Assembly (NCBI GenBank): GCA_023453725.1
Contig: JAEXTB010000308.1
Location: forward strand, 1-38,461
Source: Bacillota bacterium
Lineage (GTDB): Bacteria > Bacillota > Clostridia > Christensenellales > CAG-138
Direction: 5' to 3'
DNA length: 38,461 nucleotides
This document shows positions 6,525 to 31,911 of this stretch, piece after piece. Every line of letters begins with the position of its first letter. The stretch's first letter is position 1. The translations under genes were made by a program, and so were the position numbers. Below the pieces are notes generated by a model that was not told the DNA's origin, made no database searches, and was given only the letters and a program-made list of their open reading frames with translations.

Positions 6525-7004
6525 TTGCGTTTGGCGATACTATGCACCGGCAAATTAAAGGAACCCTATTGGCGCGACGCCGCAGAGGAATACAAAAAGC
6601 GCATGACCCGCTATGCGGAAGTTGAGGTGCTCGAAACGCCGGACGAGCCGGTGCCCGAACGGTTTTCCGAGGCCCAGCGCATACAGGCCATGAACCGGGA
6701 GGGAGAGCGCATGCTTGCGCAAATCGGCCCGCGGGATTTTGTGGTGGCGCTGTCCATTACCGGCAAACGCCTCACCTCGGAAGCGTTTGCAAAACAGATG
6801 GAACACTGGATGGCAGGCGGGTATACGCGTATTATGTTTGTCATCGGCGGGTCGCTGGGCCTTTCTTCCGCAATACTTGCCCGCGCGGACGCGCAGTTCT
6901 CTTTGTCCGATCTTACGTTTCCCCATCAGCTTGCGCGCATTGTGCTTCTTGAGCAGGTGTACCGCGCGTTCAAAATCATCAGCAACGAGCCATATCATAA
7001 ATGA
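6525..7004 (+). CDS. rlmH: 23S rRNA (pseudouridine1915-N3)-methyltransferase RlmH
   Basis: 159 aa from a TTG start with GGAGGA upstream. SPOUT motifs (FVIGGSLGLS, LSLSDLTFPHQLARIVLLEQVYRAF, EPYHK end). Confidence 0.9.
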   Translation: MRLAILCTGKLKEPYWRDAAEEYKKRMTRYAEVEVLETPDEPVPERFSEAQRIQAMNREGERMLAQIGPRDFVVALSITGKRLTSEAFAKQMEHWMAGGYTRIMFVIGGSLGLSSAILARADAQFSLSDLTFPHQLARIVLLEQVYRAFKIISNEPYHK

Positions 7005-7008
7005 GGTT

Positions 7009-7030
7009 CGCATGTGAACCGCATGTGAAC
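7009..7030. repeat. Perfect 11-bp tandem duplication CGCATGTGAAC x2 at the left edge of a low-G+C segment
   Basis: Read directly: 7009-7019 and 7020-7030 are identical. It lies 5 nt after the rlmH stop. Confidence 0.9.
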
Positions 7031-7151
7031 ATTATTGAGCAGCAGCCCAAAACGAGATTTTGCAATAGTATTCCTGTAAAAGCATGTGTATTTTGCTTGG
7101 TAAGACTCGATAGGAGTTATTTTAGGTGATGAACAAAAGCGGGGGCACAAT

Positions 7152-7520
7152 ATGTTAGTTACGCAAATACATTTTAATGGACAATGCAGAGAAGCAATTG
7201 AGATATATGTAAAAGCATTTAATGCTACGATTAGGACAATCATGCAAAATCCTGAGAATGAAAGTCTCGTCATTCATGCAGAACTATTTATTCATAACCA
7301 ATTGCTTATGTTAAACGATTTTGGCGACAATGAAGGTTTCTCTAAGGCAGGCGGATACCATTTGTCTGTTAGCTTTGACAGTGAAGAAGAGTTGAAAAAA
7401 GCTTACTCCGTATTGAAAGAGGGTAGTACGACAATTACACCTATGAGAGCTACTGATTACAGCAAATGTGTAATTCGGTTTGTTGATAAATTTGATGTTA
7501 GTTGGGGGTTTTGGGTGTAA
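7152..7520 (+). CDS. VOC/glyoxalase-fold protein (PhnB / 3-demethylubiquinone methyltransferase-domain-like)
   Basis: 122 aa. The N-terminus MLVTQIHFNGQCREAIEIYVKAFNA and the C-terminal FGVSW-like FDVSWGFWV are typical of the PhnB/YjdN group. The gene is strongly AT-rich. Confidence 0.6.
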   Translation: MLVTQIHFNGQCREAIEIYVKAFNATIRTIMQNPENESLVIHAELFIHNQLLMLNDFGDNEGFSKAGGYHLSVSFDSEEELKKAYSVLKEGSTTITPMRATDYSKCVIRFVDKFDVSWGFWV

Positions 7521-7791
7521 GTCTTAGATGCAATTATAGTTTGCAGAGAGAGCTATAATACTTTTATTCGTTTTGAAATAGCCGATTAAGACCATCCAAA
7601 GAAGTGCCTTTTCACTAACAGACTATTCTAATTCATACCCTATGGTTTCGTTGCAAAGTGATACGGTGGACCATACATAACTAGCAAATTAGGGTGCTCC
7701 TAATTGCGTTTGCTCAGAATACTCCTTGTGTGTCGAACGATTGTTTGGTATATTGGATAGAGTTGGAAGAGTAAATTTTTTGGAGGCCATT

Positions 7792-8421
7792 ATGAGCGAC
7801 AAGACGTTTTATTCTGTTGTACAAAGCCGCCGTACCACAAGAAAGTTTCAAAATAGAGCAGTGGAACCGGATGCCATACACAGGGTCTTGGCGTGCGGCC
7901 TGCAGGCCCCAACCTACAACCACATGCGGGAATGGCACTTTCTTTTTCTCAGGGATCTAGGGCTGCGTAAACGCATACTGGAGGAAAGCGGTGCATTCAG
8001 CCGCACACCGGATAAGGCCTTTTTAAACGAAACCCTTGCAAAGATCGAAAACCCATATCAGAAGGAAGTCTACTCCTATTCGGTTCCGCTGCAGGAAAAA
8101 ATTCTGCTCACGGCGCCGGAGGTGCTTCTGGTATGTTTTAAAATGGAGAAAGCGCTGTCCGCGTGTAACACGCTGTTTGAACTAAACAATTTCGCTTCCG
8201 CGTGGCTTGCGGTGGAAAACATACTGCTTGCAATGGCGGCGGAAGGGCTCTACGGGGTAACTTTGGTGCCGTTTCGGACAGACAAACTCAAAGACATCCT
8301 CGGCATGCCGGAAGATATGGAGGTTGCCACCTTCCTGCCGTTTGGCTATCCGGAAAAAGAGCCAGCAATCCGGCAAATAAACAAAGCGGTGCAGGATACC
8401 ATACATATCGATTGCTGGTAG
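7792..8421 (+). CDS. Nitroreductase family protein
   Basis: TGGAGG lies 5 nt before ATG 7792. The N-terminus SVVQSRRTTRKFQNRAVEPDAIHRVLACGLQAPTYNHMREW is the classic nitroreductase motif. Confidence 0.8.
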   Translation: MSDKTFYSVVQSRRTTRKFQNRAVEPDAIHRVLACGLQAPTYNHMREWHFLFLRDLGLRKRILEESGAFSRTPDKAFLNETLAKIENPYQKEVYSYSVPLQEKILLTAPEVLLVCFKMEKALSACNTLFELNNFASAWLAVENILLAMAAEGLYGVTLVPFRTDKLKDILGMPEDMEVATFLPFGYPEKEPAIRQINKAVQDTIHIDCW

Positions 8422-11080: not shown

Positions 11081-11878
11081 TTACGCGACTTTCTCCAGTT
11101 TCCCAAGCACCACATAGCGGGCTTCATCGTATTCATACGTGCAGGTGGAAAGCGTAACAATGCGGTCTTCTGCCGTTACTTCCACATCGCATGCAAAATC
11201 GGAGGCCTCACGCGCATTCTCAATCAAAGAGAGGAAATCCGCTTCGGTGGCAAAGCTTGTCTGGTATACCTCGTTTGTCGCGTAGCCGTCCGTGACATAA
11301 CCGGCAAACAGCTCCAGCCGGTATACGGCGGCAGGCGTAAACAGAAGCATATCCGGATGCACGTTATAATAAGTCTGCTCCTTGTAGTTAACCAATGAGG
11401 CAAACATGGAGCCATTCTTCATGTGATGCCCATATAAAATTGTGTTCCGGTCCGAAAAATCCTTTTTATTTCTTGCGTCCACAAACACTGTGCCCATCGA
11501 ATTGCGTTCCTTACTGAACAGGTGGCCTAAATAATAGCTGTTGTTGCCGCCCTGCACCACAGGGTAGTTGATGACCGTACCCTCTGAATATAGCCACGCG
11601 TAAAACTCATCGTTTGCAGCTTGCAGCGCTTCATAATCAAGCTGCAGCATCGGCAGGGGAGTAGGCGCGGGGGTGTTGTCCTGGACATTCGGCTCCGCGG
11701 GCACAGGCAATGGTGTAGAGACTGCGCTGCGGGAAAGTTTCAGATACAGCGCGTCTCCCGCCCGGTATTCAATCAGGGGCAGCGCAAACAGAATACCGCA
11801 TACCACCATGGCAATGGCACACAGAACGATCATCAGGTTTAATAAAATGTTCTTGGGGTTGCGCTTGCTTTGACCCAT
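11081..11878 (-). CDS. srtB: Class B sortase
   Basis: N-terminal TM anchor, NDEFYAWLYSEGTVINYPVVQGGNNSYYLGH, TILYGHHMKNGSMFASL, and the catalytic TLSTC motif (IVTLSTCTYEY). Confidence 0.85.
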   Translation of the reverse strand: MGQSKRNPKNILLNLMIVLCAIAMVVCGILFALPLIEYRAGDALYLKLSRSAVSTPLPVPAEPNVQDNTPAPTPLPMLQLDYEALQAANDEFYAWLYSEGTVINYPVVQGGNNSYYLGHLFSKERNSMGTVFVDARNKKDFSDRNTILYGHHMKNGSMFASLVNYKEQTYYNVHPDMLLFTPAAVYRLELFAGYVTDGYATNEVYQTSFATEADFLSLIENAREASDFACDVEVTAEDRIVTLSTCTYEYDEARYVVLGKLEKVA

Positions 11879-11943
11879 GGACCTGCCCTTTTAAAATACT
11901 GGTCTATGTGACTCTCAATGGAACGGGTATCTATCCCGAAAAC

Positions 11944-11968
11944 AAAGGCGGCTTTTTCGGCCGCCTTT
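11944..11968 (-). terminator. Intra-operon hairpin (partial terminator/attenuator) between the sorted-protein gene and srtB
   Basis: Perfect 9-bp stem AAAGGCGGC / GCCGCCTTT with a 7-nt loop. On the minus strand it is followed by TTTGTTTTC. Confidence 0.45.
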
Positions 11969-11990
11969 TTGTGTATTTTGTAATAGAGCG

Positions 11991-12749
11991 TTACGCCTTC
12001 GTGCGGCGCTTGTGCAGCAGCAGCACAACCAGCACTGCGCCAAATACCACGAACAGTCCGCCCCACAGCAGCAGGTTTGAAGTATCCCCCGTGCCGGGAG
12101 AGAGCGGGATCTGGTTGTCGTTGATGGTAATGACCGGCCCGGGGCCGAGCGGAATTCTCGGATCGTCGTCATCATCGTCGTCGTCATCGGGCACATAGAC
12201 GTCCGCTTGGAACACCCACTTAACTTTGCCGACAGCGTTCTGGTACGTATTGTCCAAGCTGGCGGGCACTTTCATGGTGACGGTCAGCGTTTGCGTATCG
12301 CCGGAGTAGAAGCGGCCCAGGTGCAGGAATTTGCCCGCATTTGTTTGCAGCCCGTTATCCGGCCACGGAGAAATGGCGCTGCCTTCCGGGACCAGTACGG
12401 TGCCGTTTTCATTCTTTACTTCAAATGTAATCTTATTCAAAAGCCCCGCAACGCTCTCGCTTACCGCTTCCCCGCGCAGGAAAAGCTCAATGCGCTCATA
12501 GGAAGGGTTGCTGATTTTTATTTTCTGCGTATACACGCCGCCGGGCATCATGTTCTGAAAATCGGGGAACAGCCCGCTGCCGCTGCCGTCGTCGGGGGCG
12601 AAGCCGAACAAAGAGCCGGCATAACTTCCGTTGTAGGTGGCGGAAGAATCCGCCGCGTGCGCCGTTGCTGCAAACGCGAACAGCAGCAATAAGCAGAGCA
12701 TTGCCGTGCCGGTCCGTTTCAGGCTGATCATACGTTTCATGTGTTTCAT
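11991..12749 (-). CDS. Cell-wall-sorted surface protein with an SPxTG (SPGTG) sorting signal; likely SrtB substrate
   Basis: Sec signal ending AHA-AD. A beta-rich ~170-aa domain, then a D9 run, then IPLSPGTGDTS followed by a hydrophobic TM (LLLWGGLFVVFGAVLVVLLL) and a basic tail HKRRTKA. The start is ATG 12749 or, more likely by RBS spacing, ATG 12740. Confidence 0.8.
   Translation of the reverse strand: MKHMKRMISLKRTGTAMLCLLLLFAFAATAHAADSSATYNGSYAGSLFGFAPDDGSGSGLFPDFQNMMPGGVYTQKIKISNPSYERIELFLRGEAVSESVAGLLNKITFEVKNENGTVLVPEGSAISPWPDNGLQTNAGKFLHLGRFYSGDTQTLTVTMKVPASLDNTYQNAVGKVKWVFQADVYVPDDDDDDDDDPRIPLGPGPVITINDNQIPLSPGTGDTSNLLLWGGLFVVFGAVLVVLLLHKRRTKA
12162..12188 (-). repeat. (GAY)9 trinucleotide run encoding nine consecutive Asp
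   Basis: Read directly: ATC GTC GTC ATC ATC GTC GTC GTC ATC on the + strand, in frame with the 11991..12749 ORF. Confidence 0.9.
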
Positions 12750-12855
12750 CCCCCTTAGTTCCCGCTGTCGCGGGTATGGATCAAAGGCAAGGTGCTATTC
12801 ATGTTAAGATGTTCCCGGGGCGCGGGAGCTGCGGCCCGGGGTGAATGTTGTTACA

Positions 12856-13548
12856 TTATGTGGGTGGGAGTGTGGGTGTGGTTTGCCCGTCCAAAGCAGA
12901 GAACGCGGCGCTAGCGTTGGCGAAGTTTTCAGCTTGGATTGCCTCGGCCTTCACGGCGATGGTAAAGCCGCTTTCCTGAAGGGGAGCAAGCTCCTTATCC
13001 AGTTGACTGGGTAAGGCAATGCCGGTAAAGAGCGGATTTGTTGCATTGCCACTGGCCAATATGCCGTTATAGTTGAAGGTGTACGTAATGGTATCGCCAA
13101 CCACAACGCCATCACCAGCCGGGATCCAATCGGTGGTGTTGAGGCCTATCACAACATCGCCGATGATATCAATGTCCTCTTCGCCCTCATACATCTCAGA
13201 CGCTGCGCGGAAGCCCTCGTAATTGGAGATCGTCACCTTCAAGCGCACATATGCAGGATTGGAGCCCACATTTTTTACCTGTGGGTCCTTTGCGGCTGTA
13301 TCACCGGGCAGCAGTGGTTTCGCCTCGTTATATCCGAGAGCCGGGTTTTGAGCATCCGGTGTACCTATTTCTTCATCGTCAAAATCAAAACCATCCCATG
13401 CGGGTTCGCGGAGCAAAATATCCACATTACCCATGGTGAAGGTATTGGTCACATCTCTTGTGGCGGTAAAGTACGCCAACGTCACGCCAAGGGCGGTGAT
13501 CGCGACAAGGGAAATGACCAGGGAGAGTACGAGTATTTTCTTTTTCAT
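12856..13548 (-). CDS. SipW-dependent-type signal peptide protein, TasA/CalY (camelysin)-like fibre subunit, copy 3
   Basis: The N-terminus MKKKILVLSLVISLVAITALGVTLAYFTATRDVTNTFTMGNV is the SipW-cognate signal class. The KNVGSNPAYVRLKV strand and the C-terminal AEAIQAENF motif are shared with copies 1 and 2. Confidence 0.8.
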   Translation of the reverse strand: MKKKILVLSLVISLVAITALGVTLAYFTATRDVTNTFTMGNVDILLREPAWDGFDFDDEEIGTPDAQNPALGYNEAKPLLPGDTAAKDPQVKNVGSNPAYVRLKVTISNYEGFRAASEMYEGEEDIDIIGDVVIGLNTTDWIPAGDGVVVGDTITYTFNYNGILASGNATNPLFTGIALPSQLDKELAPLQESGFTIAVKAEAIQAENFANASAAFSALDGQTTPTLPPT

Positions 13549-13635
13549 TGCCTTTTCCTTCCATGTGGTTCAGACTTCTGGCGAGTTTTCATTCATGGTG
13601 CAACCGCAAAGGTAGCTCTTGCCCCAAAAGTCGGC

Positions 13636-14166
13636 TTAATATACGGTATCCCATGCCGCTAATGCATTACTACCGGCAGAAGCTTGGATGGCATAAGCGG
13701 TAATATCAATGGTTTTATCCGCCGCGGAGCCGATGGCGGCAATAGCGGTGTTGTCGGCGGTGGTCTTAATCACGATATTCTCAAACAAAGCCGGAACGGT
13801 GGAAGAAGCCGATACCTTGTTGGCATAGTAATATAGATCTAGTGTGCTGTCATACGACCAGCCTGCACCAAGGACCGGTTGCTCCATAACGGTTTTGATC
13901 TGTGCGGGGATTTCAACCTTCAAATATACCCAACTTTCTTCGGTGCCTGAGGGATGAACTGTCGGGTTTTTAGGAATGGTTGCACCCGGAACGATCTTGC
14001 TGCCGTCCGTCCATGACGTTTCATCAACAGTAAGACCAATGTTTCCGACGGTAAATGTGTTGGTTAGACTGCTGGTGGTTGCCGTTAAATACGCCAGCGT
14101 GCCGCCTACACTTGCCAAAACCAGTACTACAGCGGCCAGGATCAGTACCAATGACTTTCTCTTCAT
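13636..14166 (-). CDS. SipW-dependent-type signal peptide protein, TasA/CalY-like fibre subunit, copy 2
   Basis: N-terminus MKRKSLVLILAAVVLVLASVGGTLAYLTATTSSLTNTFTVGNI. Also WVYLKVEI and AYAIQAS near the C-terminus. Confidence 0.8.
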   Translation of the reverse strand: MKRKSLVLILAAVVLVLASVGGTLAYLTATTSSLTNTFTVGNIGLTVDETSWTDGSKIVPGATIPKNPTVHPSGTEESWVYLKVEIPAQIKTVMEQPVLGAGWSYDSTLDLYYYANKVSASSTVPALFENIVIKTTADNTAIAAIGSAADKTIDITAYAIQASAGSNALAAWDTVY

Positions 14167-14242
14167 TTTCGTTTCCTCTACTTTCAGTTCTATTTATTTG
14201 GAATGTTGATTTTATATAAAGCCAAGCGATAATGGCTGGCCG

Positions 14243-14824
14243 TCAGGGGGTAGTTGTGGTAGCGGAAGTTGCGCGGGCAAAAGCGGCCTGTGCGGTGGCT
14301 GCGCCCATACCTTCCGCCTGAATGGACTGCGCAAGCACCTGCAGCTCAAAGTATTTCCCATTGTAGGCTTCCGATAAACCGGTTACATTCGGCGTGCAGG
14401 ACTGCACCAGCACTGCCGTCAGGTTGCCGGTGTCCAAAGTTACGCCGGGCTGCACAATGGCATTGTGGTAATAGTAGCCGTCCGCGCCCTTTGTCCAATC
14501 GGCTGAATTGATGGTGATGGTATAGGTGCCCTCCGTAGCAAGGCCGGTGCCGGAACCGTCCCTGTTGCGCCAGACAGGCACAAGCGTTGCGCGGATAAAG
14601 GCTGGCACATTGCCGATGTTCTGCACCTTCACGTTGGACTTCGTGGTTTTGTCAAACGTCTCCACGACTTGGTTGGGCACCTTTCCAACTTCAAAGGTGT
14701 TGACAAGCGCGTTTGGCGTAGAGGTGAGCCACGCAAGCGTTCCCCCAATGGAAGCTACCACCAGGATGACTGCGGCAACCACGATCAAAATTGTCTTGTT
14801 TTTCTTCTTTAACAGTACCTGCAT
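14243..14824 (-). CDS. SipW-dependent-type signal peptide protein, TasA/CalY-like fibre subunit, copy 1
   Basis: N-terminus ...VVASIGGTLAWLTSTPNALVNTFEVGKV. Also VQNIGNVPAFIRATL and AQSIQAE. Its ATG lies 2 nt after the sipW stop, with GGAGGTG inside the sipW 3' end. Confidence 0.8.
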   Translation of the reverse strand: MQVLLKKKNKTILIVVAAVILVVASIGGTLAWLTSTPNALVNTFEVGKVPNQVVETFDKTTKSNVKVQNIGNVPAFIRATLVPVWRNRDGSGTGLATEGTYTITINSADWTKGADGYYYHNAIVQPGVTLDTGNLTAVLVQSCTPNVTGLSEAYNGKYFELQVLAQSIQAEGMGAATAQAAFARATSATTTTP

Positions 14825-14826
14825 GC

Positions 14827-15372
14827 TTACACCTCCGGATGCTTGGGCGTTTTACTTACGCTAGCCCGTTTGTCGGCTTCTTCCGCCTTTTTCAAGAGAT
14901 CGGGGATAAATACCAGTATCAGCAGCACGAGGACAGCGGTGCCCGCTAAAATCATGCCTTTCTGCGTAGAGAGAAAGCTGGATACGTAACCGAGCTTGGG
15001 TACGGTAAATATCGGCTTGCCCAGAAGGTTTTCAAAGTGGACAGGCGCTGCGTCCGGCACATCGTTCGCGTCGCCCTTGGTGTAAAAGAGGCTGTTGGCG
15101 CTGTCTATCGCCACAACGCGGTGGGTAGCGACAACGAGATCCTCGTTCAGGACGAACGTGATGGGATCGCCGTCTCTGATGCTTTCAGGCGTAACCTTTT
15201 GCACATAGATCAGGCTGCCAACCTGGTAAGTCGGCTCCATGGAGCCGGAAAGCACCGCAAACGGCGTCAGCCCAACAATCCGCACCCCTGCAAGCAGTAT
15301 GGCCAACAGTACGACGGCGGCCACCAGCACGGTAGTAAGCGCATTCCATATAATTTTCACGATCTTTGACAA
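14827..15372 (-). CDS. sipW: Signal peptidase I, SipW (archaeal/ER Sec11-type)
   Basis: TTG start with GGAGGA 9 nt upstream. Catalytic Ser box (VLSGSMEPTY) and His box (VATHRVVAI), TKGDANDVPD, and the second C-terminal TM typical of SipW. Confidence 0.85.
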   Translation of the reverse strand: MSKIVKIIWNALTTVLVAAVVLLAILLAGVRIVGLTPFAVLSGSMEPTYQVGSLIYVQKVTPESIRDGDPITFVLNEDLVVATHRVVAIDSANSLFYTKGDANDVPDAAPVHFENLLGKPIFTVPKLGYVSSFLSTQKGMILAGTAVLVLLILVFIPDLLKKAEEADKRASVSKTPKHPEV

Positions 15373-15398
15373 GGTGCGTTATCCTCCGTACTGGCGCG

Positions 15399-18300
15399 TT
15401 ATACTGCGGGATTGTAGGGGTTAAAACTGTTCACCGCAAAGCTTTCGCCGGAAAGCCAGAAGGGAACGCGGTTTGTGTTGGCCACCGAGCAGGAGATTGC
15501 GGTATCGGTCGGTGTCTGACCCAATGTTCTGTCGCTGTTGGTCCAGCCAATGGTCGGCGTGGCGTCATACCGCCAGGACCACGTGGTCTCTTCCGTTACG
15601 GTGTACGTGCCCTTGGGCAGGCCTTTGATCACCTTGCTGCTGTTGCCCTGGATGACTTCTTTGACGGTAATCCCGGTATCGCTGGTCAGCGTGAAGATGT
15701 AGCTTTCGCCTTCCGCGCCGCCCGTCTTTGTAATGGTCACCTGTCCGGATATAACCGTCACGGTGAAGTGCTGCGCCGCTGTGGTGACGTCCGCAGAGTT
15801 ATTCATGATCTTGCAGAACGTCGTAATGTCTACGCCGCCGATTAGAGCTTTCACCTTAAAGGTGGAGGTCACAGCCGGTTTGTACACGGTAAGATCGCTT
15901 CCGGGCGCGGTGCCGGTTACCTTCACGGGGGAGACTGTTACAGTAGGTGCTGTCGCAAACGGAGCGGCCACAGCGGGTGCGCCCGTGGTCCCGACCCATG
16001 TAATGCCGGAATAACGGCCGGTCAAATTCGTGGTTTCACCCAAGAACACGCTGGTATCCGTGCAGGTGATGGTGGGTTTTAAGACGAATAGTTTCAAATG
16101 GCTTCCAACGGGTGCCGCCGCAGTCTTTGTGATTGTGGACGCCGCAGTCAAATCATCCAGATCGCCGTCTGTGCGTGTGACGGATGCAATGGTGACGCCT
16201 GTATCAGCCGTTGGGTACGCCGGGGATGCGGGCAGGCCGCTAAAGGTGTAGGTCAGCCCGGGCGCCGCGCCCATTGTGACGATATTGGCGGTATTGGCGC
16301 CATGCTTCCAATCAACATTGGCAATTGCGGCGGTATTGAGCTGTGCCGTGGTCGGATTCTGCGTGAGGTACACGCTCAAATCCTTTGCCGTGATGGCGGG
16401 GTTATAAACGCTGACGCTTGCGGAACCAATATTCAAATTGGCAATACTGCCCGCAGTACCAACTTGGTTAGTTGCCGTCTCGGAAGGCGTAATGGCAGCG
16501 GTAACGGTATAGGTCTTATCCGCCATCAGGTCAGCAATCGTACTCGTGCCGGTCCATTCGCAAAGCGCGGAGCCGAGCACGGAACCCGCGGGAACGGTAT
16601 AGGTTCCTATGACTGTGCCGCCATCTTTAATGGTATAAGCGACATCGGAATACTGGTTGGTCACAACATTGCCCAGCGTATACGTGCTGCCGCCGCTTGA
16701 GGTAGTGTAGTTCCCGCCAAACAGACTGGTCAGTACTACATCATCCCCCGCATAGATGTCTTTGTTTTGCAGGGAAGCGGTGCTGAACCGTATGGGCACG
16801 TTGACTTCCGGGGACTCGTTTCCGAACATCTGCCTCGGAGCCGGAGCCGTAGCGTTATCGTACAGGCCGGATGTCGCAGGTACGTTTGTCTCCACGTTGT
16901 TGCCGCCGATAAAGCTGGGCTCGCGCTCCACTTCTATTTCGATGATCAGCTTTTTGCCGTGGAATGTATTGCCTGCGCCTCGCCCGTTGACGGAGACGTA
17001 GTTCGTATCAAAGTCAAACCCGCTGACGGTAACGGTCTTGCCGCTGACTGTGGGCGTCAAAGCTACGACAGTTTCATTGACAAACGAAAGCGTACCGCCG
17101 GTATAGGAAGCGTCCGCCGTCTTGACGGTAATATTGCCGGGCGTCGGTAACCGGAAATAGGCGGATATCGTATCCTTGATGCGCGCTTCAGCGCCCAGCT
17201 TCACCGTTGGGTTGCCAACCTGTTGCGATATGTCCTGGAATACATCATCCAATGCATTTGCATTGCTTGCGGAAAGATAATAGCTGGACCATTCTCCTGT
17301 TATCGGATCCTGTTTCCCGGTAGCGCCGCCTGTTCCGGGGGCGTCCAATGCCGTCGCATTGGGATAATTTGAAGACGTTAAATGCATATACCTGTTCGCA
17401 CGGTTGGTATCCCCGCTAGTGGTTCCAGGGAGGGACCCACCTGCATTCACTTCTGCATCCGCAAAGATGCCCACCGTAAAGACCGTGACTGACTTATCTT
17501 TGAGAACTTTACTTTCAGCAATTGTATTTGTGGCAACAGTGCTGCTGAAACCTGAGCCATGGTTGGGATATCCGTCCGTAAACATGACAGTTACGCGGTT
17601 GCGGCTTGAAGTGGCCGCAGAAAAAATGCTGTTGGCATTTGCCATACCATAATCTGCGCCTGTGGAACCATCGGCGGTCAAACTGTTTACAATTCCTTTT
17701 AAGGTAGCAGCTCCAGTTGCGTCAACGGTAATCAGATTTTGTCTAATGGAAGAGTTATCCGCAAACGTAACAATCGCAATTTTATGTTTATTTGCGGCAA
17801 CCGTTATACTGTCGTTTTGTGCTTTTGTAGAGTCGATGAAGTTGTTAACGGCCGTCTTAAGCGCCGCAAGCCGGGACGTTGTAACCGTAGTTTCATTTCT
17901 TCGGTAGAGCGTCCATGGTGCAGTTCCATTGTCATAGTCGCTGGTTGCTGTAACGGTAGTTCCTTCGGCATTTACATAGGAATAAGTGTATTGATTATAA
18001 CCACCTGAGCTATTAATCCAAGTTCGAGTTAACGTTACCTGAGTGAAAGTTCCATTACCCAGGTCGTAATACAAATTATCCTTTCGGTCATAGAGCTGCG
18101 AATTCTTGGTCTGACTGCGGACCTGGAAAGTATAGACTGTCTTTGAAAAATCATAATCCATACTGCCGGATACATCCAAAACAAGCACGATATCCGCAGG
18201 CGCAGGCTCGTTTGTGTTTGTAACTGTACCTGTGGTATAGGATTCGAGACGGATCTTATAGTTGCCGTTCGGAAGAAGGCTGACGGATTTGTCCAGTTGA

Positions 18301-19001
18301 ATGCCGGTATCAGGCACCACCAATGTGGTGAAGCCCCTGGCCATTGATTTTAGCTTGGGGGCAGAAGCGGGAGCGGTCAAAGAGGTAAGCAACGCGCCCG
18401 CGTTGCTGAAATCTTCTTTCGCAACGCCTGCTCCAAGCAAATTGCCGGTAACGGAGAACAGCTTTGTAAACTCTTCCTCCGTAAACTCCTGTGCAACCGC
18501 ATCCATTTTATCCGCATCCAGAAGGGCGGAAAGCTCAATCCATGCGTCAATGCGCGCCTGGTTGCTTTCCAAACCGCGCAGGTAATCCGCAATTTCAGCA
18601 GCGGTCATCTTTGTAAAATCAAGCGCCTGAGAGAACCATGCGGCCAACTCCGTCTGGGTCGCATAGCCCTGCAAAGACGTAATCTGCTGCTCTGTGAGCA
18701 CAGTGAGCACGGCTTTGAGCGCATCGCCTTCGAGCGTCTTCAAATACGCATACAGTTCTTCCCCTGATAGCCCGCTTACGTCAATGGACGAATTTGTCGC
18801 AGGCGTCGGCAGCGGCGTTTCCGTCGGTCCCGGCGTTGCAGCGGAATCCGGCGTTGGTGTGGGAGTCGCCTGGGGCGCTTCTACAGACGAAGGCGTGGCG
18901 GACTCATCCCCCTCCGCCGCAAAGCCCGCGATGGGGAACAGCCCCACAACCAGCAATGTAGCCAATAAAAGGGCCAGTGTCTTCTTGCTTTGTTTCTTCA
19001 T
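15399..19001 (-). CDS. Giant secreted vWA-domain adhesin with Ig-like beta-repeat modules (about 1200 aa)
   Basis: Sec signal (…GLFPIAGFAAEG), a P/T-rich linker, and two helical E-[LI]-x-x-YL-[KR]-x-LE repeats. The vWA MIDAS motif is VLVLDVSGSMDY, with VTVMFTDGYPN and VTVFTVGIF. About 700 aa of T/G/V-rich beta modules follow. There is no LPXTG/SPXTG motif and no C-terminal TM. The start is ATG 19001 or GTG 19013. Confidence 0.8.
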   Translation of the reverse strand: MKKQSKKTLALLLATLLVVGLFPIAGFAAEGDESATPSSVEAPQATPTPTPDSAATPGPTETPLPTPATNSSIDVSGLSGEELYAYLKTLEGDALKAVLTVLTEQQITSLQGYATQTELAAWFSQALDFTKMTAAEIADYLRGLESNQARIDAWIELSALLDADKMDAVAQEFTEEEFTKLFSVTGNLLGAGVAKEDFSNAGALLTSLTAPASAPKLKSMARGFTTLVVPDTGIQLDKSVSLLPNGNYKIRLESYTTGTVTNTNEPAPADIVLVLDVSGSMDYDFSKTVYTFQVRSQTKNSQLYDRKDNLYYDLGNGTFTQVTLTRTWINSSGGYNQYTYSYVNAEGTTVTATSDYDNGTAPWTLYRRNETTVTTSRLAALKTAVNNFIDSTKAQNDSITVAANKHKIAIVTFADNSSIRQNLITVDATGAATLKGIVNSLTADGSTGADYGMANANSIFSAATSSRNRVTVMFTDGYPNHGSGFSSTVATNTIAESKVLKDKSVTVFTVGIFADAEVNAGGSLPGTTSGDTNRANRYMHLTSSNYPNATALDAPGTGGATGKQDPITGEWSSYYLSASNANALDDVFQDISQQVGNPTVKLGAEARIKDTISAYFRLPTPGNITVKTADASYTGGTLSFVNETVVALTPTVSGKTVTVSGFDFDTNYVSVNGRGAGNTFHGKKLIIEIEVEREPSFIGGNNVETNVPATSGLYDNATAPAPRQMFGNESPEVNVPIRFSTASLQNKDIYAGDDVVLTSLFGGNYTTSSGGSTYTLGNVVTNQYSDVAYTIKDGGTVIGTYTVPAGSVLGSALCEWTGTSTIADLMADKTYTVTAAITPSETATNQVGTAGSIANLNIGSASVSVYNPAITAKDLSVYLTQNPTTAQLNTAAIANVDWKHGANTANIVTMGAAPGLTYTFSGLPASPAYPTADTGVTIASVTRTDGDLDDLTAASTITKTAAAPVGSHLKLFVLKPTITCTDTSVFLGETTNLTGRYSGITWVGTTGAPAVAAPFATAPTVTVSPVKVTGTAPGSDLTVYKPAVTSTFKVKALIGGVDITTFCKIMNNSADVTTAAQHFTVTVISGQVTITKTGGAEGESYIFTLTSDTGITVKEVIQGNSSKVIKGLPKGTYTVTEETTWSWRYDATPTIGWTNSDRTLGQTPTDTAISCSVANTNRVPFWLSGESFAVNSFNPYNPAV

Positions 19002-19220
19002 CCCGCTATGCACCCCTTACGCTGGAATTGGCTGGCAAACGAGCGCCAGCCGATACATGTATTTCCATCTTTCACAAATCATAAACCACGCTGGTCACAG
19101 ACCAGCCTCCAAACCGTCTTTTTTCAATTTTATTTTTTCCTTATTTAGGTTCCCTGCAGTTAAAATGGCAGGAGAGTTCTCAAAATATTCACATACAGCG
19201 TTGTTTTTCAAAAATCACCA

Positions 19221-20916: not shown

Positions 20917-20954
20917 ACAAAGGCCGTCCAGCCTACAGAAAGAAGGATTTGTTG

Positions 20955-21914
20955 ATGAAGAAAAAGGCGCTTGCCCTGCTGTTGGTGCTCACGATGCTGT
21001 TCCTTGCAACCGGCTGCCTGCCCAAATTGGTGCAGGGCGTTGTCGAACAATACATGGAAGACAAAGCGGGTGAAACAATCGAGGCAAAGCCTGTTCCCCA
21101 AACTCCGGAGCAGGAAGCGCAGCTTCCCGGCAAGGCTGAGCAGCCGGCTTCTCCGGTTGCACCTCCCGCGCCGGGTGAAACGACTGGTGCAACGGATATT
21201 TACAGCAATATGGATTATGTGCGTGTGTATTCCGATTATCCGCAGGAATTTGATCTGGATGGGGACGGCGCATTGGAAACGCTGACGGTATTGACAGACG
21301 ATGATGCGGGGACGTTTGGCATCAACATCGAAAAAAACGGAGAGACCATGCCGGGGGATGCCATACAGGCATATTTGAAGGATGCGTTCGTCGCTTATAA
21401 TTCCGAAGGCAAGCCCTGCATTGTGGTAAGCTACGATTATGCCTCGGATGATTATGAGACCGCCATCTATACATTTGACGGGCAGTGCCTCGCCTGCACC
21501 GATACAAAGACCGGGTTTGCGGAAGGCATATATGAAGGCGTATGGATGCTGCGCGGCTGGGTGTACACGATGGGGACATGGAGCGGCTACCATAAATGGA
21601 CAATATCACCGTCCTTTACGTTTGCTTCCCAGGGGCCCGATCTTTGGATGCTGCAGGATGCCGGCCCAGACCGGCTGCTGTCCGCGAAAACAAGCATAGA
21701 CGCGCAGTTTATCGAAAACGGCGCGCTTGTACCTGGAACGATACAGGCGGGGGAACGCCTGCGGCCCTACGCCACGGATCAAAATGAGGTCGTATATTTT
21801 AGCATGGAGGATGGCAGAAAAGGGCTGCTGCGTGTAGAACTGAAAGAAGGGCTTACCTATATTGGCGGCCAACAGGATGACATGGTGTTTGACAATCTGT
21901 TTTATGCCGGATGA
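20955..21914 (+). CDS. Hypothetical lipoprotein
   Basis: MKKKALALLLVLTMLFLATGC has a lipobox (LATG-C). An E/P/A-rich linker follows, and there is a DLDGDGALE calcium-loop-like motif. No family recognised. Confidence 0.6.
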   Translation: MKKKALALLLVLTMLFLATGCLPKLVQGVVEQYMEDKAGETIEAKPVPQTPEQEAQLPGKAEQPASPVAPPAPGETTGATDIYSNMDYVRVYSDYPQEFDLDGDGALETLTVLTDDDAGTFGINIEKNGETMPGDAIQAYLKDAFVAYNSEGKPCIVVSYDYASDDYETAIYTFDGQCLACTDTKTGFAEGIYEGVWMLRGWVYTMGTWSGYHKWTISPSFTFASQGPDLWMLQDAGPDRLLSAKTSIDAQFIENGALVPGTIQAGERLRPYATDQNEVVYFSMEDGRKGLLRVELKEGLTYIGGQQDDMVFDNLFYAG

Positions 21915-24915: not shown

Positions 24916-24976
24916 TGGGGGATAACAATCGGGATGTATGCTTGCAATGTAAAATGAATTGGAGGAAGTATTCAAC

Positions 24977-25921
24977 ATGGAAGCAATCAGAAAGTTTGCA
25001 ACTCTGGCGGTCAGCGCATTACTCGTGCTTTCCGTATTCGCAGGTTGCGCGCCTGCGGCTGAAGCGCCCGCGGCGACCGAAGCACCCGCAAGCGAAGCGC
25101 CTGCGGTGACCGAAGCTCCCGCATCCACATTTGACAATAAGCAGGATATCATCGTGATCTCCCGCGAAGACGGTTCCGGCACCCGCGGCGCGTTCATTGA
25201 ACTCTTGGGCGTCGAAGTGAAGCAGGATGACGGCACCAAAGTGGATATGACAACCGTTGAAGCGCAGATCACCAACGATACCGCCGTCATGCTCACTACC
25301 GTCGCCGGTAACCCCTATGGCATCGGCTACATCTCGCTTGGCTCCCTCAATGATACAGTAAAGGCGGTCCAGGTAGACGGCGTGGACGCCACCGTTGAAA
25401 ACATCAAGGCCGGTACCTACAAGGTTTCCCGTCCGTTCAATATCGCCACAAAGGGCGAAGTGAGCGCCGCAGCGCAGGATTTCATCAACTTCATCATGAG
25501 CGCAGAAGGACAGGAAGTTGTATTGAAGAGCAAGTACATCAAAATCAATGACGCCGCTCCCGCGTTCGCTCCCACGGAAGCTTCCGGCAAGGTCGTCGTC
25601 GCCGGTTCCTCTTCTGTCACCCCCGTCATGGAAAAGCTTGCGGAAGCTTACAAGGCTGTTAATCCTAACGTCACCATCGAAATCCAGCAGAGCGACTCCT
25701 CCACCGGTATGAAGAGCGCCATCGACGGCACCTGCGACATTGGGATGGCTTCCCGTGCGCTCAAGGACAGCGAACTTTCCGAAGGCCTCACCCCGACTGC
25801 CATCGCCATGGACGGTATTGCGGTCATCGTCAACAACGAGAACACCTTCTCCAGCCTGACCTCCGACCAGATCCGTGCCATATTCACTGGCGAGATCCTC
25901 AGCTGGAGCGAGGTTGCGTAA
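24977..25921 (+). CDS. pstS: Phosphate ABC transporter substrate-binding lipoprotein PstS, with permuted domain order
   Basis: GGAGGA upstream of ATG 24977, lipobox VFAG-C, and an (E/T)APA-rich linker. PstS/PBP_like_2 motifs are present (SREDGSGTRGAF, GIGYISLGS, GTYKVSRPF, GSSSVTP, DIGMASRAL, IAMDGIAVIVN, IFTGEILSWSEV), but the canonical C-terminal half comes first. Confidence 0.85.
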   Translation: MEAIRKFATLAVSALLVLSVFAGCAPAAEAPAATEAPASEAPAVTEAPASTFDNKQDIIVISREDGSGTRGAFIELLGVEVKQDDGTKVDMTTVEAQITNDTAVMLTTVAGNPYGIGYISLGSLNDTVKAVQVDGVDATVENIKAGTYKVSRPFNIATKGEVSAAAQDFINFIMSAEGQEVVLKSKYIKINDAAPAFAPTEASGKVVVAGSSSVTPVMEKLAEAYKAVNPNVTIEIQQSDSSTGMKSAIDGTCDIGMASRALKDSELSEGLTPTAIAMDGIAVIVNNENTFSSLTSDQIRAIFTGEILSWSEVA

Positions 25922-25955
25922 ACGTAACATAAACAATGCCAGTGTATGGCATGGC

Positions 25956-25992
25956 TGCCGCCCGGAAAACGCCCCCGCGTTTTCGGGCGGCA
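25956..25992 (+). other. Strong intercistronic hairpin between pstS and pstC, with no U-tract
   Basis: A 16-bp stem with one bulged G (25956-25972 pairs with 25977-25992) and loop CCCC. It is followed by AGCGCG, not a T-run. Confidence 0.6.
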
Positions 25993-26074
25993 AGCGCGTC
26001 CCATAAGATTGTTCCGTGCAGCATTCTGCACACCCCAAAGAACCGTATCCTAAGGAAAAAGAAATAACGGGGGA

Positions 26075-26932
26075 ATGTTCATGAAAAAATGGAAGGAACC
26101 GGCGATGAAAGGCGTATTCATCGCGGCGGCGGCCACCTCCATCCTCTCCGTAGCGCTTATCTGCATATTCCTGTTCGCAAACGGCCTCCCGGCGATATTT
26201 GAGATCGGCCCGGCCAATTTCCTTCTGGGGCGGACATGGAAGCCGGGAAATGATATTTACGGCATATTCCCTATGATTGTGGGGAGCGTCTATGTCACGG
26301 CCGGGGCCATGCTCATCGGCGTGCCCATCGGGTTGTTAATGGCCATATTCATGGCGCGCTTTTGCCCGCGCTGGCTGTACCGCGTATTAAAACCGGCAAC
26401 GGAGCTTTTGGCGGGGATCCCTTCGGTCGTATACGGCTTCTTTGGCCTGGTGGTCATCGTGCCGTTTGTACGGGAGCAGTTTGGGGGCAGCGGTGCATCC
26501 ATGCTAACTGCCTCAGTGCTCCTTGGCATTATGATATTGCCTACGATAGTGGGCGTGGCGGAGAGCGCAATCCGCGCCGTGCCGGAGAACTACTATGAAG
26601 GCTCGCTCGCGTTAGGCGCGACGCATGAGCGCAGCGTGTTTTCCACCCTGGTTCCCGCTGCGAAGTCCGGCCTGTTCGCCTCTGTTGTGCTGGGTATGGG
26701 CCGCGCCGTTGGCGAGACCATGGCGGTCATCATGGTGGCGGGCAACCAGGCGCGCATGCCTGCGGGCATACTCAAGGGACTGCGTACGCTGACTGCGAAC
26801 ATCGTCATTGAAATGGGCTACTCGGCGGATCTCCACCGCGAGGCGCTGATTGCAACAGCCGTTGTGCTCTTTATCTTCATCCTGGTCATCAACGGGCTGT
26901 TCTCGCTGCTCAAGAGGAGGTCGAACCTATGA
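26075..26932 (+). CDS. pstC: Phosphate ABC transporter permease PstC
   Basis: Polytopic permease with the EAA-type loop (ESAIRAVPENYYEGSLALGAT). It sits after pstS. An alternative start is ATG 26081. Confidence 0.9.
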   Translation: MFMKKWKEPAMKGVFIAAAATSILSVALICIFLFANGLPAIFEIGPANFLLGRTWKPGNDIYGIFPMIVGSVYVTAGAMLIGVPIGLLMAIFMARFCPRWLYRVLKPATELLAGIPSVVYGFFGLVVIVPFVREQFGGSGASMLTASVLLGIMILPTIVGVAESAIRAVPENYYEGSLALGATHERSVFSTLVPAAKSGLFASVVLGMGRAVGETMAVIMVAGNQARMPAGILKGLRTLTANIVIEMGYSADLHREALIATAVVLFIFILVINGLFSLLKRRSNL

Positions 26933-27798
26933 CGGGAACGAATGCTTCTTACTATAAAACTGCCGCGCATCCGGGCAGGGGAAAAGCGATATTCTTACGG
27001 GTATTGGTTTACCTTGCCGCGATCATTACCGTTACGGTTCTGCTGTTCCTGGTCGGGTATATTTTAATCAAGGGCGTACCATATCTTACGCCGGAACTGT
27101 TTGCGTGGGAGTATACATCGGAGAACGTCTCCATGATGCCTGCCATTATCAACACCATATTGATGACGGTGCTTTCGCTCATCATTGCGGCGCCGCTTGG
27201 CGTATTTGCCGCAGTCTACCTGGTGGAGTACGCAAAGCGAGGCAGTAAATTTGTTTCCGTTGTCCGCGTGACGGCGGAAACGCTTTCGGGCATTCCTTCC
27301 ATTGTGTACGGGCTGTTTGGCCTCCTGTTCTTTGTCACCCGCCTCCAGTGGGGCATGTCCCTGCTGGCGGGCGCGTTTACTCTGGCGGTTATGATACTGC
27401 CGCTTATTATGCGTACCACCGAAGAAGCGCTAAAGGGTGTGCCGGACGCATACCGGGAAGGCAGCTTTGGCCTTGGCGCAGGGCGGTTAAGAACGGTATT
27501 TTCCATCGTACTGCCTGCGGCGGTTCCGGGCATACTTGCCGGCGTCATATTGGGCATCGGCCGCATTGTGGGAGAAACCGCGGCGCTCATTTATACGGCA
27601 GGTACTGTCGCCAAAGTGCCGGAAAATCTTCTCTCTTCCACCCGCACACTTTCGGTGCATATGTATTCGCTCGCGCGCGAGGGGCTGCATATCAACCAGA
27701 CATATGCGACTGCGGTGGTGCTGCTTATCGTCGTGGTTGGCATTAACGCGCTTTCTTCCATGGTGGCGCGCAGGCTCATTAAGCGCAACGGCAGCTAA
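26929..27798 (+). CDS. pstA: Phosphate ABC transporter permease PstA
   Basis: ATGA overlap with pstC. EAA loop TEEALKGVPDAYREGSFGLGAG. Confidence 0.9.
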   Translation: MTGTNASYYKTAAHPGRGKAIFLRVLVYLAAIITVTVLLFLVGYILIKGVPYLTPELFAWEYTSENVSMMPAIINTILMTVLSLIIAAPLGVFAAVYLVEYAKRGSKFVSVVRVTAETLSGIPSIVYGLFGLLFFVTRLQWGMSLLAGAFTLAVMILPLIMRTTEEALKGVPDAYREGSFGLGAGRLRTVFSIVLPAAVPGILAGVILGIGRIVGETAALIYTAGTVAKVPENLLSSTRTLSVHMYSLAREGLHINQTYATAVVLLIVVVGINALSSMVARRLIKRNGS

Positions 27799-27853
27799 GT
27801 AAACCCTTATGGGGGCGTCACAGAAAAGGCCAGAACCGGCGAAAGGAAGAACT

Positions 27854-28621
27854 ATGGAAAAGCAGAAAAAGGCCATTAAGTTTGATATAAAGGATTTGGA
27901 TCTGTATTATAGCTCGTTTCAGGCGCTTAAGAAAGTGAACATGTCCGTGGAGGAGCGGGAGATCACCGCGTTCATCGGCCCATCCGGCTGCGGCAAGTCT
28001 ACACTTTTGAAAACGCTCAACCGCATGAACGATCTTGTGGAAGGCTGCAGGATTGTAGGCAAGGTCGCGCTCGACGGAGAAGACATTTACGGGAACATGG
28101 ATGTCAACCTTCTCAGAAAGCGCGTGGGCATGGTGTTTCAAAAGCCCAATCCGTTCCCCATGAGCGTGTACGATAACATCGCATATGGCCCGCGTACGCA
28201 CGGCGTGCGATCGAAAGCGAAGCTTGACGATATTGTGGAACGCTCGCTCACCAACGCGGCGATCTGGGATGAACTCAAGGACCGGCTCAAAAAGAGCGCC
28301 CTTGGGCTTTCCGGCGGGCAGCAGCAGCGCCTGTGCATTGCACGCGCGCTTGCTGTGGAGCCCGAGGTGTTGCTGATGGATGAGCCCACCAGTGCGCTGG
28401 ACCCCATTTCCACCTCAAAAATTGAGGATCTTGCCGTGGAATTGAAGTCAAAATATACTATAATCATCGTAACGCACAACATGCAGCAGGCTGCGCGCAT
28501 TTCAGACAAGACGGCATTCTTTTTATTGGGTGAGGTCATAGAGTACGGGGAGACGGAGCAGCTGTTTTCCATGCCAAAGGATAAACGAACAGAGGACTAC
28601 ATCACAGGGAGGTTTGGCTGA
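27854..28621 (+). CDS. pstB: Phosphate ABC transporter ATP-binding protein PstB
   Basis: AAAGGAAG upstream of ATG 27854. Walker [10 protein letters not shown], signature LSGGQQQR, Walker [12 protein letters not shown]. Confidence 0.9.
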
Positions 28622-29277: not shown

Positions 29278-29308
29278 AATCGGTACGTAAGCTTAAAAGG
29301 GGAACGGC

Positions 29309-29977: not shown

Positions 29978-29984
29978 AAGCAAT

Positions 29985-31729: not shown

Positions 31730-31734
31730 ATATA

Positions 31735-31880: not shown

Positions 31881-31911
31881 ACGAGTTCTTTTATCGCCGC
31901 ACTTGTTTTTC

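Follow-up and report, generated by a model that had tools for sequence, protein, structure and literature searches.

A TasA-type surface-fibre gene cluster with a probable sortase B-linked wall anchor in a clostridial Bacillota bacterium

We analysed a 38,461-nucleotide (nt) contig of an uncultured, gut-type Bacillota bacterium of the class Clostridia (JAEXTB010000308.1, the whole of which is called the window below). Seven co-directional minus-strand genes at positions 11081-19013 encode, in transcription order, a vWA protein, a SipW-class signal peptidase, three TasA-like fibre subunits (T1, T2 and T3), a 252-amino-acid (aa) protein with a cell-wall sorting signal (the anchor protein) and a class B sortase (SrtB). 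The cluster is probably a surface-fibre system of the bsa/TasA type with its own dedicated wall anchor.

Gene order and conservation of the cluster

The open reading frames (ORFs), read from the sequence and separated by gaps of 26, 2, 76, 87, 106 and 112 nt in transcription order, lie exactly where an original prediction made from the sequence alone had put them, and hidden Markov model (HMM) matches agree with the identities it gave them. The motifs that it quoted (GGTLAWLTS...VNTFEVG, GGTLAYLTA...TNTFTVG, GVTLAYFTA...TNTFTMG, SPGTG followed by 20 hydrophobic residues and HKRRTKA, and TLSTC) are all present. A genome scan with one genome per species gave 38 loci, in which synteny was assessed by ORF and phmmer comparison. 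Eight other genomes (L001-L008), with anchor proteins of 47-70% identity, share the vWA-SipW-T1-T2-T3-anchor-SrtB order, so the seven-gene arrangement is not due to chance. There are two exceptions in detail: L004 has two subunit genes only, and the contig of L006 stops just after the anchor gene and has a sortase-like ORF upstream.

Sorting signal and TasA-like fold of the anchor protein

The anchor protein consists of an ordinary Sec signal (AHA/AD), a jelly-roll domain, an Asp-run linker, the sequence IPLGPG...IPLSPGTG and a cell-wall sorting signal. Its SPGTG signal is the only sorting signal in the window and identifies the protein as a sortase substrate. The motif (S/A)PGTGD is present in 18 of 19 aligned homologues, the most distant of which (P0024) has LPDTGD. 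The generic LPXTG HMM was silent on the window protein and passed on its homologue P0014 (20.4 bits, cutoff 15.9); TIGR04088, the model of the SipW-dependent signal, did not match the anchor protein. Residues ~194-221 (12087-12170) comprise a run of eight Asp followed by the near-duplicate pair IPLGPG...IPLSPGTG, which is conserved across the family and gives a weak, sub-threshold match to NF033073, the 'doubled motif LPXTG anchor' (22 bits, cutoff 48).

Neither the anchor protein nor its domain matched a Pfam or NCBIfam family, and a few family members gave sub-threshold matches to Peptidase_M73. A full-length AlphaFold2 (AF2) model of the 252-aa protein was poor, with a predicted local distance difference test score (pLDDT) of 69.8, and its Foldseek matches were mostly noise, with TasA and AbpA at low TM-score. 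A model trimmed to residues 35-190, for which a 29-sequence alignment of database proteins was used, reached a pLDDT of 91.7 and a predicted TM-score (pTM) of 0.84. The first three Foldseek matches of this model were 7ueg_A, which is AbpA of the Pyrobaculum bundling pilus (E 7.5e-4), and the B. subtilis TasA structures 5of2 and 5of1_B (TMq 0.52 and 0.50), all with probability 1.00, TMq 0.44-0.52 and E values of 7.5e-4 to 3.3e-3. The Sulfolobus 0406 thread (7pnb) was also matched (probability 0.99). AbpA, TasA and the 0406 thread are all donor-strand-complemented filament subunits. When the anchor domain (217 sequences) was aligned with the T family (74 sequences) using hhalign, a probability of 77% was obtained (P 2e-5), over 109 collinear columns that start at the MPGD...N motif and end at the C-terminal N-x-Y-Q...W-x-F strand. 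The model and the profile comparison together suggest, with moderate confidence, that the anchor domain is a divergent TasA-superfamily jelly-roll, the fold that the original prediction had proposed looking for in this protein.

The subunit Lys that is discussed below has no equivalent in the anchor family. Of 217 sequences, 174 have Gln, 27 Glu and 15 Asp at the aligned position and none has Lys, and the Asn of the subunits is missing as well; with Gln at the Lys position, the anchor would be without lock chemistry. The family is large: searched against 1.84 billion proteins, the anchor-domain profile matched 3,839 cluster representatives (clusters defined at 50% identity) at E<=1e-3 and 1,935 at E<=1e-10. 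A sorting signal is present in 74 of 75 closer homologues and in 127 of the 142 best new representatives. Most of the remaining homologues end in a transmembrane (TM) segment with a basic tail or in S-layer homology (SLH) repeats, and a few have neither. It is rare for the anchor domain to lack an envelope tether, whether a sorting signal, SLH repeats or a TM tail.

The anchor protein belongs to the fibre module

Wherever sequence exists, a T-type gene lies immediately upstream of the anchor-domain gene (38 loci), and in the distant loci this neighbour is the T1-type gene. In 27 of the 38 loci, SipW and two to five further T genes lie no more than 10 kb from the anchor-domain gene; of the remaining loci, most (L009, L013, L014, L022, L027, L028, L034, L036 and L037) stop at a contig end on the side of SipW. 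The trio vWA-T1-anchor occurs often. The distant carriers include Erysipelotrichaceae, Anaerovoracaceae, Oscillospiraceae, Robinsoniella, Faeciplasma and even Eggerthellaceae; SipW-dependent subunits accompany the anchor domain in Clostridia, Erysipelotrichaceae and Eggerthellaceae alike.

The domain architecture of the distant homologues varies in three ways. A T domain with a SipW-type signal is fused to the anchor domain and a sorting signal in L018:3401-5182, L020:9320-10594, L030:3874-5175, L032:9320-10657 and P0329, the N-terminal domain of the last of which passes the BsaA-family model TIGR04090 (69 bits, cutoff 60). SLH domains (E 1e-32 to 1e-43) take the place of the sorting signal in L027:1086-2465, L033:9701-11113, L035:8377-9681 and L037:2353-3678, with three matched stretches in L027, L033 and L035 and two in L037, so that the same base domain uses a non-covalent wall anchor in some lineages. 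In L017:6911-8053, L019:9962-11422 and P0239, the sorting signal is separated from the anchor domain by FctA/Spy0128-type isopeptide stalk domains. These stalk-bearing anchor proteins borrow a module from sortase-assembled pilins.

It could be argued that srtB and the gene of its SPGTG substrate are an unrelated pair, an independent cassette that happens to lie beside a sipW/tasA-like operon. The srtB gene adjoins the anchor gene only in the clade of the window, L017 and L025, the 10 kb around the anchor gene are free of sortase genes in most distant loci, a terminator-like hairpin parts srtB from the upstream genes of the window, and deletion of srtB in C. perfringens strain 13 gave no fibre phenotype (PMC7395162). 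In none of the 38 loci, in contrast, does the substrate occur without fibre genes. Its TasA-like fold, its synteny, its fusion to subunit domains in several species and the exchange of its sorting signal for SLH repeats beside the same neighbours place it in the SipW/TasA module, and they largely refute the independent cassette as far as the substrate is concerned; we consider this explanation very improbable. The claim of the original prediction that substrate and sortase are both parts of the fibre locus thus holds for the substrate, while srtB is lineage-specific. The dedicated srtB is a lineage-specific add-on and the SPGTG substrate is integral to the fibre module. Because srtB is absent beside most distant anchor genes, a sortase encoded elsewhere in those genomes must act on them.

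Signal peptidase, fibre subunits and a candidate isopeptide lock

The signal peptidase belongs to the SipW class, with 107.2 bits for TIGR02228 (cutoff 51.85) and 29.4 bits for Pfam Peptidase_S26 (cutoff 22.9). The catalytic motifs SGSMEP (Ser, residues 42-47) and THRV (His, residues 83-86) are kept, from which the enzyme appears catalytically intact. The Bacillus SipW equivalog NF046067 gave 93.9 bits, under its 190-bit cutoff; the window peptidase is of the same class as Bacillus SipW and is not its orthologue.

T1, T2 and T3 all pass TIGR04088 (21.1, 22.4 and 28.4 bits, cutoff 19). Their SipW-cognate signal is followed directly by an x-[VT]-N-T-F-x-x-G strand, and the three proteins are paralogous (hhalign probabilities of 99.2-99.5% for T1 against T2 and T3, and 99.9% for T2 against T3). 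Of the HMM matches that were expected from the original prediction, those of TIGR04088 on the subunits and TIGR03064 on the sortase were obtained, and Pfam PF12389 (Peptidase_M73, cutoff 22.5) was above cutoff on T2 only (28.6 bits, in the N-terminal 75 residues); T3 gave 17.6 bits and T1 no match. Most database homologues of the T family carry PF12389. The BsaA-family model TIGR04090 was matched by T1, T2 and T3 at 33.3, 32.2 and 34.6 bits, below its 60-bit cutoff and over the N-terminal 30-90 residues only. The best PDB match of the T-family profile was the TasA fibre 8aur, a weak one (E 0.05).

In BsaA of C. perfringens, N35, E56 and K74 are required for heat- and SDS-stable oligomers according to mutagenesis, and a donor-strand 'exchange and lock' isopeptide was proposed for it (Kivimaki et al., PMC11580942). 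Three positions of the T family are conserved in a comparable way: the Asn of the N-T-F strand, a Glu 13 residues further on and a Lys in a PG-x4-K-D-P motif. In T3 numbering, N35 and E48 are each kept in 54 of 57 T-family sequences and K87 in 40 of 57. The T-family profile aligns this triad to TasA ATFASGTLDLSAKE...PGDKLTKD (ATF...KE...PGDKLTKD, 8aur), from which it follows that TasA has the lock Glu and Lys and is without the Asn. V33, N35 and F37 of T3 have the same numbers as in BsaA; a search for the BsaA numbering N35/E56/K74 among the retrieved homologues gave no match. Since the aligned Asn, Glu and Lys are conserved in T1, T2 and T3, the shaft is likely to be covalently locked by intermolecular Asn-Lys isopeptides. 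The purely non-covalent polymerisation assumed in the original prediction is accordingly made doubtful by these residues.

No sorting signal was found in T1-T3 or in any of 120 T-family proteins. As fibre subunits never carry such signals, the sortase would anchor rather than polymerise. This bears on another explanation, namely a pilus of the Streptococcus pyogenes FCT type, in which a class B sortase polymerises the pilins and the signal-peptidase homologue is a SipA/LepA-like chaperone. The parts match superficially (an adhesin, a signal-peptidase homologue, beta-sandwich subunits, a class B sortase and a base), the window sortase has the pilin polymerase Spy0129 (3psq) as one of its PDB relatives (E 1.9e-26), and the distant anchor homologues of L017 and L019 carry the FctA/Spy0128-type stalks mentioned above. 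SipA/LepA proteins are catalytically inactive, however, whereas both catalytic residues, Ser and His, are retained in the window peptidase, which is above the TIGR02228 cutoff, and the window sortase is closer to anchoring SrtB enzymes than to Spy0129. Neither T1-T3 nor the vWA protein carries a sorting signal, so a sortase cannot join them. A sortase-polymerised pilus was rejected because the subunits are without sorting motifs, and an FCT-type system appears highly improbable.

Class B sortase and transcription of the cluster

The sortase matched TIGR03064 at 196.5 bits (cutoff 153.75) and is of class B. Its closest solved relatives are C. difficile SrtB structures (5gyj and 4ux7, E 2e-35 to 1.5e-34), followed by SrtB of B. 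anthracis, Listeria and S. aureus. The SPGTG of the anchor protein fits the (S/P)PxTG motif of clostridial (C. difficile) SrtB (PMC4155245), as had been predicted. From the adjacency of the two genes and the agreement with this consensus we infer that the window SrtB cleaves the SPGTG of the anchor protein. A single SrtB-sorted base subunit with an anchoring role, as put forward in the original prediction, is well supported by both the comparative and the fold evidence.

The intergenic region of the anchor gene and srtB contains a GC-rich hairpin that may act as a (partial) intrinsic terminator (Table 1). An equivalent GC hairpin with a T-run occupies the same intergenic position in seven related loci (L001-L005, L007 and L008), and because of this conserved hairpin transcription may not continue into srtB. 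The structural genes are probably transcribed as one unit, most of whose transcripts would end at the hairpin, and srtB would then be expressed by read-through or from a weak promoter of its own. Promoter and terminator scans overall were not above shuffled background, and the conserved hairpin alone was retained. The promoter candidates upstream of the vWA gene match 9/12 positions and are of low confidence, the number of sites in that region not being above the shuffled expectation. No Rfam element was found in or upstream of the cluster, nor was a cyclic di-GMP (c-di-GMP) or other riboswitch found upstream.

The vWA protein and its C-terminal tail

The vWA protein comprises a Sec signal peptide, a Pro/Thr linker, a helical N-terminal region, the vWA domain and ~600 aa of beta-rich C-terminal domains. 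It matched Pfam VWA at 36 bits (cutoff 23.8) and VWA_2 at 36.6 bits (cutoff 27), and the metal ion-dependent adhesion site (MIDAS) DVSGS is intact (residues 280-284, nt 18162-18176), which identifies a vWA domain. On an identical metagenome scaffold, gene callers start the protein at M5 (ATG at 19001), giving 1200 aa. No sorting signal and no SipW-type signal (TIGR04088) was found in it. A search of the PDB gave no sequence relative, and the regions flanking the vWA domain matched no Pfam family, a SpaA match being sub-threshold only. Within the helical region (residues ~75-200, 18400-18800), segments of the E-E-L/Y-L-x-x-L type are repeated, again with no Pfam match.

The C-terminus reads WLSGESFAVNSF-NPYNPAV. 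A W-[LV]-x7-N-x-[FW] motif is present 1-18 aa from the C-terminus in 15 of 15 vWA proteins of related loci (those of L001-L008, L013, L016, L023, L027, L035, L037 and the window), which differ widely in other respects and have lengths between 149 aa (an ORF cut by a contig end) and 2953 aa. The A-V-N-S-F core of the window tail resembles the subunit donor strand [LV]-[TV]-N-[TS]-F, and the tail may be a C-terminal donor strand that carries the lock Asn. With a donor strand and no acceptor groove, the vWA protein would be a chain terminator, which would fit a position at the tip. The conserved tail is suggestive of a vWA protein, a putative adhesin, that may cap the fibre.

Table 1. Positions of the genes and sequence features of the fibre cluster in the window.
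Feature	Position (nt)	Strand	Description
Class B sortase SrtB	11081-11878	-	265 aa; N-terminal TM segment; His in LYGHHM; catalytic Cys in TLSTC (residues 242-246, nt 11141-11155)
Candidate (partial) intrinsic terminator	11944-11968	-	GC-rich hairpin AAGGCGGC-cgaaaaa-GCCGCCTT, then TGTTTTC
Wall-anchored base protein (anchor protein)	11991-12749	-	252 aa (249 aa from M4)
Cell-wall sorting signal of anchor protein	11994-12101	-	SPGTG (residues 217-221, nt 12087-12101), DTSN, 20 hydrophobic residues, HKRRTKA
Predicted TasA-like jelly-roll domain of anchor protein	12195-12647	-	residues 35-185; AF2/Foldseek
Subunit T3	12856-13548	-	230 aa; signal GVTLAYFTA; donor strand VTNTFTMG (nt 13429-13452); candidate triad N35/E48/K87
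Subunit T2	13636-14166	-	176 aa; signal GGTLAYLTA; donor strand LTNTFTVG (nt 14044-14067); candidate triad N36/E49/K66
Subunit T1	14243-14824	-	193 aa; signal GGTLAWLTS; donor strand LVNTFEVG (nt 14684-14707); candidate triad N42/E55/K62
SipW-class (archaeal/ER-type) signal peptidase I	14827-15372	-	181 aa
vWA-domain protein	15399-19013	-	1204 aa from GTG
Candidate C-terminal donor strand of vWA protein	15423-15458	-	WLSGESFAVNSF; residues 1186-1197, 7 aa short of the stop
Weak sigma-70-like promoter candidates	19182-19211	-	TTGAAA, 16-18 nt, AATATT/TATTTT; 170-200 nt 5' of the vWA start

Proposed assembly of the fibre

We propose that SipW would cleave T1-T3 and free their N-terminal donor strands, that the subunits would polymerise outside the membrane by donor-strand exchange, and that the polymer would be locked by Glu-catalysed intermolecular Asn-Lys isopeptides as in BsaA. 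The anchor subunit would join one end of the fibre through the same beta-sandwich interface, without the lock chemistry. SrtB would cut the anchor protein at SPGT/G and link it to peptidoglycan, and through this link the fibre would be held on the cell and not shed. The position of srtB behind the terminator-like hairpin would lead to low expression of the enzyme and high expression of the structural genes. In the polarity that we prefer, the vWA protein would be the distal tip, with its C-terminal ...AVNSF... tail plugged into a subunit groove, and at the base the anchor would accept the donor strand of the last subunit.

The opposite polarity would make the anchor protein a TapA-like initiator. 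Here the tethered anchor would donate its N-terminal strand (xVTYxG...FxF) to the groove of the first subunit, the fibre would grow outward with free N-terminal donor strands at its distal end, and the vWA protein would not be the tip cap proposed above. In TapA, which is fully folded by itself, the N-terminus serves as the donor that starts TasA filaments (PMC10151520). The anchor model is likewise a complete sandwich, with the N-terminal strands packed in cis at high confidence in the monomer, and the anchor keeps an N-terminal strand like the donor strand of the subunits, without the Asn. In the natural fusions this strand follows a subunit domain and a linker of ~20-35 aa, a subunit-linker-strand topology that is also that of the engineered self-complemented pilins of chaperone-usher work. 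The mature anchor, however, has ~4 residues before its first strand and is without the long free extension of TapA, and the C-terminal N-x-F tail of the vWA protein would be left with no acceptor except the anchor. On balance we regard the initiator arrangement as distinctly unlikely and favour a distal vWA tip with an accepting base, although this polarity and the tip role of the vWA protein are the weakest steps of the explanation.

Several observations weigh against a locked, wall-anchored fibre with a vWA tip. The candidate triad was assigned through the TasA alignment and the identity of numbering with BsaA, not through an alignment with BsaA. The anchor-family sequence profiles gave nothing significant against the PDB and did not reach TasA, and Foldseek support for the anchor fold is moderate (E 7.5e-4 to 3e-3, TM-score ~0.5). 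Since the anchor never has the lock Lys, the joint between fibre and anchor would be non-covalent, and the anchor may act otherwise, for example as a donor-only initiator like TapA. All close relatives are metagenome-assembled genomes (MAGs), and the clade appears to be known from sequence alone. In C. perfringens, BsaC is secreted as a monomer, which weighs against an obligatory tip role of the vWA protein, and BsaA of strain 13 is membrane-associated, not wall-associated (PMC11580942). Deletion of srtB in the same strain left BsaA polymers and the pellicle unchanged (PMC7395162). Strain 13 has lost, by recombination, an LPXTG-bearing bsaB-like gene that is present in most strains (PMC11580942).

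A more far-reaching reading is that the cluster encodes a third kind of covalent Gram-positive pilus. Its shaft would be polymerised by strand exchange and locked by spontaneous Asn-Lys isopeptides, its vWA tip would be locked through a C-terminal Asn strand, and a sortase would be used once, at a base without lock chemistry. This reading is tentative, and we think it rather unlikely to hold in full. We know of no system in which an adhesin with a C-terminal donor strand, or such a division between polymerisation by exchange and anchoring by sortase, has been demonstrated.

Comparison with known systems

The closest known system is the bsa locus of C. perfringens (sipW-bsaA-bsaB-bsaC with srtB alongside; Obana 2020, PMC7395162; Kivimaki et al. 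preprint, PMC11580942), which we compared by its published description. In most strains one bsaB-like gene carries an LPXTG motif and bsaC encodes a vWA protein, and it was proposed by Kivimaki et al. that SrtB links the LPXTG BsaB-like protein, and thereby the fibre, to peptidoglycan (PMC11580942). The window and bsa share SipW, TasA-superfamily subunits with SipW-type signals, a vWA protein, a neighbouring class B sortase and a gene with a sorting motif; the window subunits may also share with BsaA the positions of the donor-strand Asn, the Glu and the Lys, as judged through the TasA alignment. By locus position the vWA protein is the counterpart of BsaC. The two loci differ in that the window srtB is co-directional and downstream whereas that of bsa is divergent, and in that the vWA gene of the window comes first and encodes ~1200 aa whereas bsaC comes last and encodes ~70 kDa. 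The window has three subunit paralogues, which fall below the BsaA-family cutoff (32-35 bits, cutoff 60), and its anchor protein has an ordinary Sec signal, a distinct domain without a Pfam family and the SPGTG motif.

A 2026 preprint reported that bacterial AbpX/TasA-superfamily loci are frequently linked to LPXTG or SLH anchors and sortases, and that in C. amylolyticum AlphaFold 3 predicts donor-strand oligomers in which an LPXTG anchor is joined to fibre subunits (10.64898/2026.01.04.697558). The window shares with these loci the fibre subunits, a dedicated signal peptidase, minor or tip subunits, the LPXTG or SLH type of anchor and the sortases, and both the sorting-signal and the SLH versions of the anchor were found independently here. 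The signal peptidase of the AbpX clade has ten TM helices, whereas the window subunits are SipW/BsaA-like. In that study as in ours, anchoring is predicted from genes and models. The original prediction had held such wiring to be undescribed. This claim of novelty fails, because the same parts are present in C. perfringens bsa and two preprints treat anchored TasA-superfamily loci (PMC11580942; PMC7395162; 10.64898/2026.01.04.697558); the chimeric wiring is already on record as a genomic pattern and a hypothesis.

The Bacillus systems (B. subtilis tapA-sipW-tasA and B. cereus sipW-tasA-calY/CapP) likewise form a SipW-processed donor-strand-exchange fibre (PMC9674648), and an accessory protein, TapA (PMC10151520) or CapP (PMC13082335), starts or tethers that fibre at the surface. 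They share both of these traits with the window. They are, however, explicitly sortase-independent (PMC13082335), and their operons contain no sortase, sorting signal or vWA protein, all three of which are present in the window. The lock-triad Asn that is missing from TasA is present in T1-T3, and neither TapA nor CapP showed homology to the window anchor domain by the tests run.

The solved sortase closest to that of the window is C. difficile SrtB (E 2e-35), whose (S/P)PxTG motif accommodates the SPGTG of the anchor protein; it anchors a few substrates to the wall and does not polymerise them (PMC4155245, PMC4591827). The c-di-GMP riboswitch associated with C. difficile SrtB substrates has no counterpart upstream of the window operon. 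To our knowledge, those substrates are adhesins and enzymes that are unrelated to TasA-like fibres and are not encoded with SipW. Gram-positive pili assembled by sortases, in the classical case of class C, share with the fibre proposed for the window the logic of a tip adhesin, a shaft and a wall-linked base, as well as the probable use of isopeptide bonds for strength, and the FCT pili of S. pyogenes also come with a signal-peptidase homologue (SipA) and a class B sortase (Spy0129). Their shaft is joined by sortase via sorting motifs, whereas that of the window has no such motifs and should polymerise by strand exchange.

Genomic surroundings

The cluster is flanked by ordinary housekeeping genes, namely those of a YbaK-type editing domain, an acetyltransferase, an FGGY kinase, a chemoreceptor and a pst/phoU operon. 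The same sequence is present, identical, on a metagenome scaffold, and the nearest genomes are MAGs of uncultured Bacillota, Oscillospiraceae and Feifaniaceae. The phosphate uptake cluster at 24959-31673 (+) encodes a PstS-like protein, two permeases, an ABC ATPase and PhoU, followed by a PAS/HisKA kinase; it is ordinary and bears no relation to the fibre locus. A flavin mononucleotide (FMN) riboswitch (RF00050, 103.8 bits) at 31734-31882 (+) lies directly 5' of the gene of an ECF-transporter S component (31867-32604), presumably a riboflavin transporter. A 321-aa ORF at 20949-21914 (+), located between the FGGY kinase and chemoreceptor genes, has a lipoprotein-like N-terminus (LFLATGC) and no Pfam family. 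The GC content dips to 0.40 at 7001-8000, between a SPOUT methyltransferase gene and a nitroreductase gene, and is ~0.45-0.61 in the other 1-kb blocks of the window.

Significance

The locus overturns nothing, since the idea of anchoring is already in the literature as a hypothesis. It does add a compact case in which SrtB is dedicated and co-directional and the sorting motif is SPGTG, and an anchor domain that can be defined as a large unannotated family, a candidate for a new Pfam/NCBIfam model. New here are also the candidate BsaA-like triad in all three subunits, the Lys-to-Gln substitution in the anchor, the tail motif of the vWA proteins and the conserved terminator-like hairpin before srtB. 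No settled account exists of how TasA-type matrix fibres stay on Gram-positive cells: TapA and CapP have only a loose association with the wall, and BsaA of strain 13 is associated with the membrane. The locus and its family of ~3,800 clusters argue that covalent or S-layer-type anchoring of such fibres is common in gut Clostridia and their relatives.

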